A DNA stretch of 64,000 nucleotides from Nitrospirota bacterium (GCA_963796285.1 CAWCKW010000012.1:480001-544000); one strand, 5' to 3'. Shown: positions 2,465-12,993, counted from the first letter of the stretch. Notes: generated by a model from the sequence alone, not told the origin. Program-made: numbers and translations.

Positions 2465-5133
<2,669 letters not shown>

Positions 5134-7465: not shown

Positions 7466-7714
7466 GCTTGCGCAATGCCGGAATAACACTGTATCCGCTC
7501 CGCTGCCCCTTCCCTTCGAGAAGTGAGAAAAGGGAGGGGATGGATCTTGGTAGAATATGGAATAAAGACATATTTGTGCTACGACAGTCATTGTATGTAC
7601 AAGATAAATCCAGTCAATCTTATGCTTCTGTTCGAGTCTATTTAGCAAGACAGCTTGTCTGGAACTGACGTTTGGAATACATGATTCAATAACCTCCTTG
7701 TTGTGTGGGGAACG

Positions 7715-8773
7715 ATGCGAAAAATAGCAAAAAAGAATCTCTGGCTGTTATTCCTGATCTCTACCGCGGCGCTGACAGCCGTTATCCATCTGTATATTGC
7801 CCTCTTTATCCCGCCCTCCAATGAGAAGGTTTGGAAAGAGGTCCAGGTGACCGAAGGGATGAGCTTGAAAGCGATCGCGGGGACCCTGCAGAAAGAAGGC
7901 ATCATCCGCTTCCGGGTATACTTCGAGATCATCGGCAGGTTGCAGGGCTTCAGCCGCAATGTACACGTGGGCTACTACGGGTTGAACACGCACATGAGTT
8001 TATGGGAGGTCCTGGATATCCTGCGAAAGGGCAGGATCATCGAATATGAGATCGTGGTCCCCGAGGGATATAACCTGTACCAGATCGCCTGGACACTGTC
8101 CGGCACTCCGCTTATTTCCGAACCCCATGAGTTCATTGATCTGGTGAAAAATAAGAAATATGTCCATTCTCTCGGTATCGAGGCTGATACCCTCGAAGGA
8201 TACCTCTTCCCTGACACGTACTATCTGCCCAAGGGCATCAAGCTTGAAGATATTCCAAAAAAGATGGTTCAGCGATATAAGGTTGTATTCACTGACAGCA
8301 AAAGAAAACGTGCGGAGGAACTCGGGTTCACCGAGCAGCAGATCATTACCCTTGCTTCGATCGTGGAAAAAGAGGCCAAGGTTGATTCGGAGCGCAAGCT
8401 CATCTCCGCAGTGTATCATAACCGGCTGAAGCTGGGGATGAAGCTCCAGGCAGATCCCACCGCAGTGTACGGCACCAAGGCGTGGATCACAACGGTCACC
8501 AGGGAGGACTTGAAGCGACGGTCACCTTATAACACCTATCTCCACAAGGGTCTCCCTCCGGGTCCTATCGCGAACCCTGGTGAGGGTGCGATCCTTGCCG
8601 CTCTTTATCCAGAGAATGTGGACTATCTCTTCTTTGTCGCTCAGGGAGACGGCAGCCACTTTTTCTCAAAGGATTTCGGTTCTCATGAAAAGGCTATTGG
8701 CAGGTACCGGTCGAACAAGAAAAGGGTGAAGCAGCAGGGGCAGGAGAAGCAGTCCGCAGTCAGCAGTCAGTAG
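7715..8773 (+). CDS. mltG: Endolytic transglycosylase MltG (YceG)
   Basis: LEGYLFPDTY, LASIVEKEA, LQADPT, SPYNTYLHKGLPPGPIANPG. Confidence 0.95.
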   Translation: MRKIAKKNLWLLFLISTAALTAVIHLYIALFIPPSNEKVWKEVQVTEGMSLKAIAGTLQKEGIIRFRVYFEIIGRLQGFSRNVHVGYYGLNTHMSLWEVLDILRKGRIIEYEIVVPEGYNLYQIAWTLSGTPLISEPHEFIDLVKNKKYVHSLGIEADTLEGYLFPDTYYLPKGIKLEDIPKKMVQRYKVVFTDSKRKRAEELGFTEQQIITLASIVEKEAKVDSERKLISAVYHNRLKLGMKLQADPTAVYGTKAWITTVTREDLKRRSPYNTYLHKGLPPGPIANPGEGAILAALYPENVDYLFFVAQGDGSHFFSKDFGSHEKAIGRYRSNKKRVKQQGQEKQSAVSSQ

Positions 8774-8850
8774 TCGGCAGTCACGGCCGCGGATCCCTCA
8801 TTCCGCATAGGCACCTATATATCGATCAAGCTGTTTCTCTTTTGACACGA

Positions 8851-9258
8851 TTAATTATCAAGCATGACGGAGAATCCCGAGAAGGGGGGGAAGGAACTCA
8901 CCTTTGCCGGAAGGCCCCGCGAATCGAATTTTCCATATGCCATCGAGTCGTCGAAGAATCTGATGGTCTGTTTTGTCGCGTCGATCTCGAATTTTCCCCC
9001 ACCGACGATGTCCCATTCCTGGTCATAGATATCGTATCGCTTTCTTTCAGGATCATAGCTCCCCTCAATCCCCTTGTCGAGGCAGAACCGCTCCACGATG
9101 TTGGCATGATATTTAGTAAATTCCTTTGGCGACAGAATGAGATATTCCATTGATCCGTTCCGGATCTGGACGAACTTGCCGATGATTACCGGCGGAACGT
9201 CTGTCTTCGCGATGGCGGTATAGTAGAGAGGCGAGTAATCGATCAATTCGAAGGCCAT
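8851..9258 (-). CDS. Putative phosphohistidine phosphatase, PHPT1/Janus-Ocnus-like
   Basis: Ordered motifs GKFVQIR, YHANI, GGGKF, TIRFFDDSMAYG match PHPT1 FKYVLIR, YHADI, GGGRI, KIHVYGYSMAYG; 135 aa. Confidence 0.7.
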   Translation of the reverse strand: MAFELIDYSPLYYTAIAKTDVPPVIIGKFVQIRNGSMEYLILSPKEFTKYHANIVERFCLDKGIEGSYDPERKRYDIYDQEWDIVGGGKFEIDATKQTIRFFDDSMAYGKFDSRGLPAKVSSFPPFSGFSVMLDN

Positions 9259-9405
9259 GGCTAAAGTATATCATGTGTTAGCGACCAGGAGGAAGGGGAG
9301 AAGGGTAGAGGGGGGAGGAAGCTAATAGGTTGGCATAAAGACTACACCTACAACTCTGCAATTTCATTCGACGCAACAAGCATGTAAATACGGGTTGTTA
9401 ATTAG

Positions 9406-9465
9406 CACGAACGACTCAGCTGAGGGTGCGATTTTAGCGACCTTCTCCAGCGACAATGGCTAGAC
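9406..9465 (+). other. Degenerate attC-like hairpin
   Basis: CACGAAC...GCTGAGGGTGCG / GCGACCTTCTCCAGC...GCTAGAC, 60 bp; both core boxes imperfect. Confidence 0.3.
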
Positions 9466-9514
9466 ATCTGTGTAGGTTCCAATCCAGTTTACACGACCTG
9501 CCGACTGAATGAAT

Positions 9515-10510
9515 TTATTGCCACACCATGATTCGACCTTCATTACCCTTAAGTTGCTCTCTTTCCCCGTCTTAACATTTAATACAAATATCATATTGAT
9601 TACATATTGCCTGTCATTATACATAAGTAACAAGCATCAGGTGACCAAACTGCTGGTTCTTCAACCCATATTTCTTCGGTTAGCTTCTTGCTAGTCTGTG
9701 GAGCCAGAATATAGATAAATGAATGCTTAATCTGATAGTTCTCTATTTCAAGCAAAGCAGTTTTTTCTTTACTTTGTGATGACATTATTTTCTCAAATTC
9801 TCCGGTCTTCATTTTGGAATGGGCTATTATCCTCTTAATTATGGACTCGTCTACATCATGAGATAGGTACACAATTTTAGTCCCATCATTAGACACAGTT
9901 GGTGCATAGCCAAAATCAATAATCTTTGTTTCTTCATTTGTTACACTGTCAAAGATGTATATTTTATAGTCCTTCGTACTAACCGCTAATCTTTTTCCGT
10001 CCGGGAACCATGATGGTTTGAATCGCGCCAAGCCAAGATAGAAATTTGCACGTTAGCTGAGCCATCATTTCGAGTAAAATCAAATACCAATCCTTAATCC
10101 AGTCTTCTTGTAATCTCTCATCTGGGTTTCTTGTTTTTACCTGCAAGTAGGCAATGCTTTTACCATCGGGAGAAAAAGATGGGTTCCTCGTAACGTTTTT
10201 CGATGAGATTGTGTTCGACCTTTTGTTATCTGAATATATTAGTAACCTAAAGTCTTCATCTCCTGTAGTCGTAATCACCCTTTTTCTTCCATCACGCGAC
10301 ACGTCAAAATCGTTTACAAGGGAAACAGAGTCGATTGTAATTGCTTTCTGATTGTCCTGAAGATAAGCCAAACTTTTCCATGTGCCAATTTGATACAACT
10401 TCGACATAACCAACACATTTGTCGAGCATGTTTCTGGCGCTTTAAGCATTTGTTGTCATTTGAATTGTAAGAAGTAATATGATTGTTGAGAGATAAAAGA
10501 ACCTCTTCAT
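9515..10510 (-). CDS. Secreted TolB/PD40 beta-propeller protein, several frameshifts, AT-rich
   Basis: RBS AGGAGG then MKRFFYLSTIILLL signal peptide; NPSFSPDGKSIAY, PSWFPDGKRLAV, PTVSNDGTKIVY, PAVWSPD repeats. Confidence 0.7.
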
Positions 10511-10562
10511 TTAGAATGCCTCCTACGATTGAAACAATATATTAAAGACGACTAGCTATTTA

Positions 10563-10609
10563 TTGAGTAGACCCCTATGATTATGCGCAAATCTACGGGG
10601 TCTACTCAA
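10563..10609. repeat. 13-bp perfect inverted repeat
   Basis: TTGAGTAGACCCC ... GGGGTCTACTCAA. Confidence 0.8.
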
Positions 10610-10717
10610 CACCGCAATATGGGTTCATAGTTAGGTAGTCGATTGCACAATTCTAAGTGAACTCTTGGTTTTTCGATGTATATGCTAATTGCAATAGTAC
10701 AGGAAGTAATGCTCAGC

Positions 10718-11524
10718 CTACTCCCGCTGCCTCGGGTCGAGCGCATCGCGAATTCCTTCTCCGAGCAGGTTGTAGCCGAGTACGGTGATGAGGATCGCAA
10801 GGCCGGGGAAGGCCGAAAGCCACCAGGCGATCTCGATGTTGTCCTTGCCTGAGGACAGCAGGCTGCCCCAGCTCGGGGTAGGGGGCTGAACGCCGAGGCC
10901 GAGAAAGCTCAAGGCCGACTCGATAAGGATCGCGCCGCCGATGCCCATGGTTGCGGAGACGAGGATCGGGGAGAGGCCGTTCGGCAGGACGTGCTTCATG
11001 ATGATGCGGCCGTCGGTGGCGCCGATGGCGCGCGCGGCGATCACGAACTCGCGTTCTTTGAGCGAGATGAACTCGGCGCGGATGAGCCGGGCAGGCTCCA
11101 TCCAGCTGGTGAGCCCGATCACGATCATGATATTGATGATGCTCGGTTCGAGGATGGCGATCACTGCCAGGATCAGGAAGATCGTGGGGATGCTCAGCAT
11201 GATATCCACGGCCCGCATGATCGCGCTGTCGATATAACCACCGTAGTAGCCTGCAATGGCGCCGAGAATGATGCCGAGGATCGTTGCTATTCCGACTGCC
11301 ACGAATCCCACCTCAAGCGAGATCCTTCCGCCCCAGAGCATGCGCGAGAGCACGTCCCTGCCGAGGTCGTCCGTGCCAAGCAGGTGCGAAAAACTCGGTC
11401 CGACGAGGATGTTCTTGATGTCGATGGTGGAGGGGTTATAGGGCGCGACCAGCGGAGCGAAGATGGAAAGGATGAAGATGAGCAGCACCAGCATCCCGCC
11501 GATGACGGCGAGCTTGTTCTTCAT
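10718..11524 (-). CDS. Peptide/nickel ABC transporter permease, OppC/DppC family
   Basis: HLLGTDDLGRDVLSR, EFVIAARAIGA, ESALSFLGLGVQPPTPSWG. Confidence 0.95.
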   Translation of the reverse strand: MKNKLAVIGGMLVLLIFILSIFAPLVAPYNPSTIDIKNILVGPSFSHLLGTDDLGRDVLSRMLWGGRISLEVGFVAVGIATILGIILGAIAGYYGGYIDSAIMRAVDIMLSIPTIFLILAVIAILEPSIINIMIVIGLTSWMEPARLIRAEFISLKEREFVIAARAIGATDGRIIMKHVLPNGLSPILVSATMGIGGAILIESALSFLGLGVQPPTPSWGSLLSSGKDNIEIAWWLSAFPGLAILITVLGYNLLGEGIRDALDPRQRE

Positions 11525-11649: not shown

Positions 11650-12622
11650 TTATTTCAATCTCACCCTCGGATCAGTAAAGGCATACCCGATGTCCGCCAG
11701 GAAGTTCCCGAGCAGGGTCAGAAACGCGGCGGGCACTAGAATTCCCATGACAAGGTTATAGTCCCGCGACATGACCGACTGGAACATGAGCTGCCCCATG
11801 CCGGGAATGCCGAAGACCTGTTCAATGATCACACTGCCGCCGATGATGCCGGGGAGTGACAGGCCTAAAATGGTGATAACCGGCATGAGCGCGTTCCTGA
11901 GCGCGTGTTTGTAAATGACCACGCTCTCGGAAAGCCCCTTGGCCCTGGCTGTGCGGATGTAGTCTTGCCGCATGACCTCGAGCATGTTATTCCGGACGTA
12001 ACGCGAGAATCCTGCCAGCCCGCCGAAGGACAACACGAAGACCGGCAGGATCAGATGCTGGGACCTGTCCATGAGCCTGTCCCAGCCCGAGAGACCCGTC
12101 ACATCCAGGCTCTGGATGCCGGATATCGGAAGCACACCCCACTGCACACCGAACAGATAGATGAGCAGGAGCGCCAGCCAGAACGAGGGCGTGGAAAATC
12201 CTATGAAAACGAAGATGGTCGTGAACCGGTCGAGGAGCGAGTATTGCCGGGTGGCGGACATGATACCGATGGGGATGGCGATCAGCAGCACGAGCCCGAG
12301 TGAGAGCAGATTGATCGTGAGCGTGATCGGAAGGCGTTCGAGGATCTTGTCCTTGACCTTGCGGCCGTCGGCAAAGGCCTCGCCGAAATCGAGGGTCACG
12401 AACTTTGTGAGCCACGTGGCGTACTGTTTGTAAAAGGGCTGATCAGCGCCGTAGAGCTTGCGGAGACGCTCCCGCGCCTCTGCTGATGCCCTGTGCGGAG
12501 AATTCCATCTGCGCTTCGGCCGGTCCGCCCGGGGCGAGGCGCATGACGCCGAAGCTCAGCACGGTGATGCCGAGGAGAATGGGGATCATCAGGAGCGTGC
12601 GTTTAATAAAGTAGATGAGCAT
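11650..12622 (-). CDS. Peptide ABC transporter permease, OppB/DppB family, frameshift ~12490
   Basis: [20 protein letters not shown]...LAPGGPA; [31 protein letters not shown]. Confidence 0.93.
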
Positions 12623-12632
12623 TGCCAGGCGT

Positions 12633-12886
12633 TTATCCAGTGACCTTGTATACAAGATCGAAGGGCTTTGCAGTCTGGGAAAGCTTGATGCCGATGAACT
12701 GGCCGCGGATGGCTTTCTGGACCGGATGGTGGTCGAATTCCAGATCTCGATCTTCTGCGTAAAGTCGGTGTCGTTTCCCTTTACGTGGATGGAATCACCC
12801 ATCGCGAGGTCGCCGAAATCCAGCTTGACCGCTGCGATCGAGGTTTTGTCGAAAAATTTGATCACTGATCCGATTCGCTCTTCCAT
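12633..12886 (-). CDS. Small 'translation elongation factor-like' beta-barrel protein (U32 peptidase C-terminal-like), frameshifted
   Basis: MEERIGSVIKFFDKTSIAAVKL..GDSIHVKGNDTDFTQKIE; second frame ...GQFIGIKL...DLVYKV. Confidence 0.7.
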
Positions 12887-12993
12887 GAGGGTAATCATAG
12901 TATAAATTGAGCGTCATTTCAAGGGAAAAGGGTTTTGCCCAAAGACAGGGAGGAGAGAGCGCCGAAAATGCATACGAGACGGGCACATAGCGC

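Follow-up and report, generated by a model that had tools for sequence, protein, structure and literature searches.

Phosphohistidine is central to bacterial signalling, in two-component systems, in phosphorelays and in the PTS. A short reading frame in DNA from a Nitrospirota bacterium raises the question of whether a bacterium can carry a relative of the human phosphohistidine phosphatase PHPT1, what such a protein would act upon, and how it would be expressed. The frame lies in a stretch of 64,000 nucleotides, here called the window, and a sequence-only reading had assigned its product to the PHPT1/Janus/Ocnus family and proposed that it is translated from a leaderless transcript. The features to which the argument refers are given here in window coordinates.

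8851..9258, minus strand: coding sequence of a PHPT1/Janus/Ocnus-family protein, 135 codons and a stop (basis: translation, Pfam, fold and conservation).
Key residues of the 135-residue protein: Lys28, His51-Ala52, Gly86-Gly87-Gly88-Lys89 and Ser105-Met106-Ala107-Tyr108-Gly109.
9259..9264, minus strand: 6-nt spacer TTAGCC from the -10 element to the start codon, without a Shine-Dalgarno (SD) sequence.
9265..9273, minus strand: TGATATACT, an extended -10-like element ending 6 nt before the ATG, a putative leaderless promoter.
7703..8773, plus strand: mltG (YceG family), a convergent neighbour whose stop lies 77 nt from that of the PHPT1-like gene; context only.

Translation of 8851-9258 on the minus strand yields the 135-residue protein (P0001), with the stop following codon 135, and confirms all five motif strings that had been quoted from it, in the order given: GKFVQIR (27-33), KYHANI (49-54), GGGKF (86-90), KQTIRFFDDSMAYG (96-109) and AKVSSFPPFSGFSV (118-131). 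The ATG occupies 9256-9258 (minus strand) and an in-frame TGA lies five codons upstream, so that there is no earlier start; the start codon is well defined, since most relatives align from Met1 onwards. Homologues at E ≤ 0.001 make up 405 of 407 candidate proteins drawn from a collection of 5.8 billion, and the 120 listed among the 405 share 59-97% identity with the protein and are 113-158 aa long. Of the 135 codons, 103 are the same in a 90%-identical orthologue at locus L014, 19 show synonymous and 13 non-synonymous differences, and identity over the upstream 300 nt is only 50%. As judged from these codon differences and from the homologues, the frame is a real gene under purifying selection.

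Several comparisons bear on the family of the protein. Ocnus (PF05005) is the sole Pfam family matched at E ≤ 10, residues 31-113 aligning to profile positions 8-93 of 108, and its score clears the gathering cut-off by a narrow margin (25 bits vs 23). Searches of NCBIfam, PHROGs and PADLOC with the protein returned nothing meaningful, and phmmer with the single sequence against the PDB did not return PHPT1, its lone match being unrelated (E 0.4). Family profiles recovered PHPT1 from the PDB at E 0.0084 when built from 30 close sequences (A1), at E 5.8e-7 from 75 diverse sequences (A2) and at E 1.4e-5 from nine Arg-type members (A3), with alignments that span the C-terminal half only. An AlphaFold2 model built from a 30-sequence alignment has a mean pLDDT of 93.9, a pTM of 0.87 and every residue at or above 70. 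Human PHPT1 is its sole strong structural match: it takes the first five places among the Foldseek matches in the PDB (E 2.1e-7 to 2.1e-5, followed by a match at E 0.095), and VIA-align superposes the model on three PHPT1 entries with Z scores of 12.9, 12.4 and 10.5 and an rmsd of 2.9-3.1 Å, 104 residues being aligned at 23-24% identity over residues 1-135 of the model and 8-122 of the chain. Below these entries, VIA-align places a PPK1 domain at Z 4.5. The likeness to PHPT1 exceeds chance at the level of Pfam (E 2.2e-5), profile (E 5.8e-7) and fold (Z 12.9), and the protein almost certainly belongs to the PHPT1/Janus/Ocnus family, as had been proposed. The Pfam model itself under-calls bacterial members, the precomputed PF05005 label being absent in 33 of the 120 close relatives listed.

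Human PHPT1 (14 kDa; PDB 2hw4, 2nmm, 2ai6) offers the closest comparison, having the same fold (Z 12.9 over 104/106 residues, 23% identity) and, like the bacterial protein, a single domain (125 vs 135 aa). The two have in common the GGG loop, the Ser-Met-Ala-Tyr-Gly loop and a His-Ala pair that opens the first long helix. Counted in residues, the segment from the catalytic His to the GGG loop is longer in the bacterial protein by about 13 and that from the Lys to the His is shorter by about 9; the bacterial family also conserves positions of its own: Asp7, Tyr8, Arg57, Phe58, Cys59 and Trp82. Drosophila Janus A/B and Ocnus, the founders of PF05005, share the Pfam family with the protein, a likeness known at the Pfam level; they are insect sex-regulated testis proteins.

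The catalytic site of human PHPT1 is described as comprising Lys21, His53, Ala54, Arg78, Ser94 and Ala96 (PMC4817053), in agreement with the human residue numbers Lys21, His53, Arg78 and Ser94 that the earlier reading had used. All three profile alignments (HMMER; A1, A2, A3) place Gly86-88 on human Gly75-77, position 89 on Arg78, Ser105 on Ser94, Ala107 on Ala96 and Tyr108-Gly109 on Tyr97-Gly98, the S-M-A-Y-G loop (Ser105-Gly109) falling directly onto human S94-M-A-Y-G98. Human His102, which a review reports to matter for PHPT1 activity (PMC11277029), aligns with Ser113 of the bacterial protein, a numbering derived from the A2 profile alignment. Since HMMER aligns only the C-terminal half, the two remaining pairings rest on other evidence. 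That His51 corresponds to human His53 is strongly suggested by the range of the Pfam match (31-113), by the superposition over the full length and by the invariance of the histidine. Lys28 may correspond to Lys21, a pairing that draws on the same match range and superposition, on near-invariance and in part on the human PHPT1 motif around Lys21. In the AlphaFold2 model, helix 51-62 starts with His51, a position that would fit a phosphate site at the N-terminus of that helix.

Conservation was scored in an alignment of 128 sequences, namely the 135-residue protein (P0001) and 127 of the 149 cluster representatives listed besides P0002 (P0122-P0270), the 22 representatives outside 120-160 aa having been omitted. 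These sequences are otherwise just 22-56% identical to the protein, yet His51, Ser105 and Gly109 are kept in all 128, followed by Gly87 (127), Gly86 (126), Lys28 in the G-K-F-V strand (124), Tyr108 (123), Gly88 (118) and Ala52 (107). The invariance of His51, Ser105 and Gly109, with a nearly invariant GGG, points to a pattern made by selection on a catalytic site. The position equivalent to Arg78 varies, with His in 35 of the 128, Arg in 21, Lys in 17, Met in 9, Leu in 8 and Trp in 8; on this alignment the change from Arg78 to Lys89 is a conservative one in the protein, at a position that is variable across the bacterial family. Of the earlier proposal that the lysine, histidine and serine are kept and that Arg78 has become lysine, the equivalents of His53, Ser94 and Ala96, the GGG loop and the replacement of Arg78 are thus upheld by profiles, superposition and conservation.

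The surroundings of the gene were compared across 76 loci. In the window, the order upstream on the gene's strand is a 1.1-kb low-GC stretch followed by OppC- and OppB-type permeases; in the closest clade it is OppB, OppC, sometimes a GGDEF protein, then the PHPT1-like gene, beyond which come convergent MltG, UbiB and AlaS. Convergent MltG directly follows the gene in 13 related loci, and 20 of the 76 have a member of the MltG cluster. Clustering of the reading frames shows synteny at the clade level only, and distant members have unrelated neighbours: a lipoyl E2 acyltransferase with DUF4388 and a PilT-like ATPase, an Fe-S protein with HemB, the HrpB helicase, CN-hydrolase, HEAT or TPR proteins, MoaA, and MazEF or PIN toxin-antitoxin pairs. 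This pattern shows no conserved operon partner, and genes for histidine kinases, Hpt, PTS or NDK proteins are not recurrent neighbours at the 76 loci. At two loci from Thermodesulfovibrionales/Nitrospirota MAGs (L051:5657-7188 and L052), MazE/MazF lie on one side of the gene and MazE-like/PIN genes on the other, which fits a variable, accessory location. In the gammaproteobacterium Ca. Venteria ishoeyi (L088:5959-7749), mltG (YceG) lies 334 nt after the PHPT1-like gene on the same strand. MltG is the sole neighbour to recur across phyla, though its recurrence may be due to chance.

Longer forms of the protein are rare. A search among proteins of 250-2000 aa gave one match in 8000 scored candidates, the 422-aa metagenomic protein P0343, in which OppC_N, BPD_transp_1 and Ocnus lie in one chain; the 278-aa P0255 has no second Pfam domain. 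At L020:5092-6405 an open frame of 437 aa runs through the end of OppC and the gene, but OppC itself terminates there in its own frame at a TAG. Both long forms are probably read-through or frameshift artefacts. Real domain fusions were not found, the sole longer form being this OppC-Ocnus read-through or frameshift, and because the lone 422-aa form is read in this way and no operon partner recurs, the PHPT1-like gene stands alone, in keeping with the stand-alone protein originally described.

Some irregularities of the window are of separate interest. The low-GC stretch between OppC and the PHPT1-like gene (9400-10700) has 35-40% GC vs 50-60% in its flanks and holds two overlapping fragments of PD40/TolB-like frames (9600-10031 and 9979-10449, both minus strand); it looks like an inserted, decayed segment, since several relatives have OppC about 70-220 nt from the gene. 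The alanyl-tRNA synthetase gene (2489-5133, plus strand) is split over frames 2489-3712, 3366-4103 and 4231-5133, which differ in phase, and is a single long frame in relatives (e.g., 878-935 aa); assembly indel errors are a likelier cause than a pseudogene of an essential gene, and other broken frames in this genome should be read with that caution. The frame at 12443-12898 (minus strand) resembles, at its beginning, the conserved 96-aa protein encoded before OppB in relatives and, at its end, the OppB N-terminus, which suggests a further frameshift fusing two genes.

The region immediately before the gene bears on how it is expressed. No GGAGG-type ribosome-binding site occurs in the 18 nt before the ATG, and the spacing of the -10-like element from the start codon had led to the proposal of a leaderless transcript. 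Upstream sequences were compared for 56 regions, the window and 55 related loci whose match begins at residue 1; the other 21 loci were left aside because their start codon is not fixed. A -10-like hexamer ending 5-8 nt before the ATG occurs without an SD-like motif in 11 of the 56 and together with such a motif in 3, an SD-like motif alone is present in 19, and neither is found in 23. The hexamer is concentrated among close relatives, being present in 11 of the 13 regions at a protein identity of at least 61% (the window and 10 of the 12 closest orthologues). Exact TATAAT or TATACT occurs in 10 of the 56 regions (the window and nine of the 55 loci), all among the closest orthologues, and ends 6 nt before the ATG in nine regions and 7 nt before it in one, amid flanking sequence that has diverged. 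In more distant orthologues, GGAGG or GAGGT precedes the start at the spacing normal for an SD sequence. For comparison, 1167 frames of at least 150 aa with an unambiguous ATG were taken from the genome, a set that surely includes some spurious frames: in 12 of these frames (1.0%) TATAAT or TATACT has its end 5-8 nt ahead of the ATG, and a wider set of 11 hexamers is similarly placed in 35. An arrangement that is rare in the genome and yet conserved at this gene looks like a promoter that sets the start of the transcript at the ATG.

These comparisons suggest that the gene is expressed from its own promoter and that its mRNA is probably leaderless, starting at or next to the ATG. It is rather unlikely, though by no means negligible, that the mRNA instead carries a leader, arising from a promoter further upstream or by read-through and translated from an SD-independent start, with TATACT kept for some other reason. 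Such a reading gains from the lack of a clear -35, from the GGAGG-type sites of distant orthologues and the 19 regions with an SD-like motif only, and from some relatives in which OppC ends about 70-220 nt upstream on the same strand. Against it stand the nearly fixed distance of TATAAT/TATACT from the ATG amid differing flanks, the rarity of the arrangement genome-wide, and, in the window, the 1.1-kb low-GC stretch that separates the gene from OppC. A two-hexamer promoter scan did not call the -10 site and found no terminator, its silence at the -10 site being due to the absence of a good -35, and Rfam and tRNA scans of 8600-10800 and 8000-11000 returned nothing. The leaderless transcript proposed earlier has thus gained comparative backing (11 of the 13 closest regions vs 12 of 1167 frames genome-wide) and has drawn none from the generic promoter scan.

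The bacterial family is large. A profile search of 1.84 billion cluster representatives returned 331 proteins at E ≤ 0.001, of which 216 reach 1e-10 and 21 reach 1e-30, nearly all of them 125-145 aa long; the bacterial family amounts to 331 clusters at 50% identity. Within the window's phylum the Pfam model matched 47 of 401 sampled genomes (41 above cut-off) and none of 14 control genomes, and the more sensitive profile A2 (E ≤ 1e-5) matched 59 of the 401. Counting the genome of the window (G000), A2 matched 30 of 64 genomes in its family and two of nine in its genus, and of the seven genomes in the genus that lack a match, four have a completeness of 98% or more; the distribution is patchy, even within the genus. 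The 76 loci come from species-representative genomes, and 67 carry Nitrospirota-type titles (Nitrospirota, Nitrospirae, Nitrospiria, Nitrospiraceae, Thermodesulfovibrio(nales) and Ca. Sulfobium, the last of which we take to be Nitrospirota), in a scan that favours close relatives because its patterns came from close sequences. The other nine are from Pirellulaceae (3), Planctomycetota, Zixiibacteriota, Deltaproteobacteria, Betaproteobacteria, an 'uncultured bacterium' and Ca. Venteria ishoeyi. In a Planctomycetota sample the gene occurs in four of 301 genomes, counting the seed genome, a Pirellulaceae MAG (G401) that has three copies (L090, L094, L095). The homologues of this MAG and of Ca. 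Venteria (G402) are missed by PF05005 and found with the bacterial family profile, which detects homologues missed by PF05005 at E values down to 8e-46.

Existing names tell a similar story. Homologues are titled 'hypothetical protein' at source, save for two JGI entries named 'Janus/Ocnus family (Ocnus)'; Ocnus is assigned to 28 of the 30 nearest ESM Atlas clusters, the best of which, with 343 members, is automatically named 'Janus/Ocnus family domain-containing protein'. A paper on metagenome-aided structure prediction states that PF05005 members in Pfam are largely from Proteobacteria or Cyanobacteria (PMC10989767), and by that statement bacterial members are already visible in Pfam. The view that the family is mainly eukaryotic, and the novelty attached to it, are weakened by the 331 bacterial clusters and by the automatic names in JGI and the ESM Atlas; the protein is one of hundreds of bacterial copies, automatically annotated, in an apparently unstudied branch centred on Nitrospirota. 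The third-ranked ESM Atlas cluster (66 members, labelled Ocnus) is given as 40% viral (Uroviricota), a figure that comes from 10 members with known phylum. A phage link on that ground is unsupported: tblastn against 50,697 phage records gave no match, an IMG/VR pattern scan confirmed none of 20 candidate stretches, PHROGs gave nothing meaningful, and the best BFVD match by Foldseek was just E 8.3e-3.

What the protein does must be argued from homology. In human PHPT1, His53 is described as the general base for the activation of water, no phospho-enzyme intermediate being formed, the activity is insensitive to vanadate and okadaic acid, and bacterial CheA is dephosphorylated in vitro (PMC11277029). 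By the same mechanism, the bacterial protein would be a small cytoplasmic single-domain enzyme that hydrolyses P-N bonds, above all those of protein phosphohistidine. The phosphate would sit where helix 51-62 begins, bound by the main-chain NH groups of His51 and Ala52 and taken up also by the Ser105-x-Ala107 loop; Lys28 and Lys89 would supply positive charge, and His51 would act as the general base that activates water, again with no phospho-enzyme. The gene would be accessory in Nitrospirota, held by purifying selection where it is present. Taken as a whole, the account of a PHPT1-type P-N phosphatase encoded by an accessory gene with its own promoter and, probably, a leaderless mRNA is on balance probable, its functional part resting on homology. 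No characterised bacterial PHPT1 homologue was found in the full-text literature, as covered outside subscription journals.

Candidate substrates can be named from the genome, which has one HPr-family gene (an HPr/NPr-like protein) and two Hpt domains in long reading frames, in addition to histidine kinases; any of these might carry the phosphohistidine on which the enzyme would act. The same job, phosphate removal from phosphohistidine carriers, is proposed for SixA of the histidine-phosphatase superfamily, whose fold and mechanism are unrelated to those of the PHPT1-like protein; the latter has no His_Phos_1/SixA (TIGR00249) match in Pfam or NCBIfam at E ≤ 10. SixA itself does not reach the cut-off in the host genome (best 26.9 vs 74.5 bits). 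Among 64 genomes of the window's family, SixA is above cut-off in 23 and Ocnus (Pfam) is found in 27, with both in 10, SixA only in 13, Ocnus only in 17 and neither in 24. Complementarity between the two is ruled out, since 10 co-occurrences against 9.7 expected amount to no association, and the PHPT1-like gene is thus no replacement for SixA. The more specific proposal, a second and structurally distinct class of bacterial phosphohistidine phosphatase beside SixA, accessory and leaderless, that resets the phosphohistidine of HPr/NPr, Hpt domains or kinases in Nitrospirota, is put forward tentatively, as a possibility with somewhat less than an even chance.

The same chemistry might be directed elsewhere. 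The enzyme could hydrolyse small-molecule or non-histidine P-N compounds, such as phosphoramidate or phospholysine, in metabolism or detoxification and not in the reversal of protein phosphohistidine, and limited evidence of PHPT1 action on phospholysine has been reported (PMC11277029). The lack of a recurrent signalling or PTS partner beside the gene is compatible with such a role, as are its varied housekeeping and accessory neighbours (OppBC, GGDEF, E2 acyltransferase, HemB, HrpB, CN-hydrolase, MoaA, toxin-antitoxin pairs), the freedom with which the substrate-anchoring Arg78 position varies in the family, and the patchy, accessory distribution (59 of 401 genomes of the phylum, two of nine of the genus including that of the window). 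The catalytic residues, however, are the same as in the protein phosphatase PHPT1, and a recurrent metabolic gene cluster is likewise absent; this role is considered distinctly unlikely. Less probable still, and very improbable in absolute terms, is a non-catalytic binding or regulatory protein of PHPT1 fold: the phosphohistidine phosphatase role of the Drosophila Janus proteins has been called unclear (PMC4817053), Arg78 is variable across the family and the equivalent of His102 is missing from the 135-residue protein, but His51, Ser105 and Gly109 persist in every one of 128 sequences at 22-56% identity, beside a nearly invariant GGG. That the frame is a chance one, or a shadow of the 103-aa plus-strand frame that overlaps it at 8842-9153, is refuted by the homologues (405 at E ≤ 0.001), by the spread of the family over 331 clusters at 50% identity, by the confident AlphaFold2 model and by a codon substitution pattern indicative of purifying selection.

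For the reading of the protein as a PHPT1-type phosphatase, interest is tempered by a family that is already automatically annotated, by organisms that are uncultured and by the absence of a pointer to a particular substrate. Among the side results, the most useful are that expression is probably leaderless and that the positions of Arg78 and His102 vary. Phosphohistidine phosphatases with proposed in vivo targets are named as SixA, PHPT1, PGAM5 and LHPP (PMC7948535); SixA is the lone bacterial entry among these four, and a bacterial family of the PHPT1 type would be another kind of off-switch beside it. Comparative work also gains a clean example of a Nitrospirota gene that is probably leaderless, in the -10 box conserved at its start codon. 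The family would also supply small, easily expressed proteins for probing the PHPT1 mechanism, including the need for Lys21, Arg78 and His102, since it varies at two of these positions. Finally, the origin of eukaryotic PHPT1 becomes a question for study, and the diversity of the bacterial family, with its 331 clusters, may mean that the eukaryotic enzyme came from a bacterial ancestor rather than the reverse.
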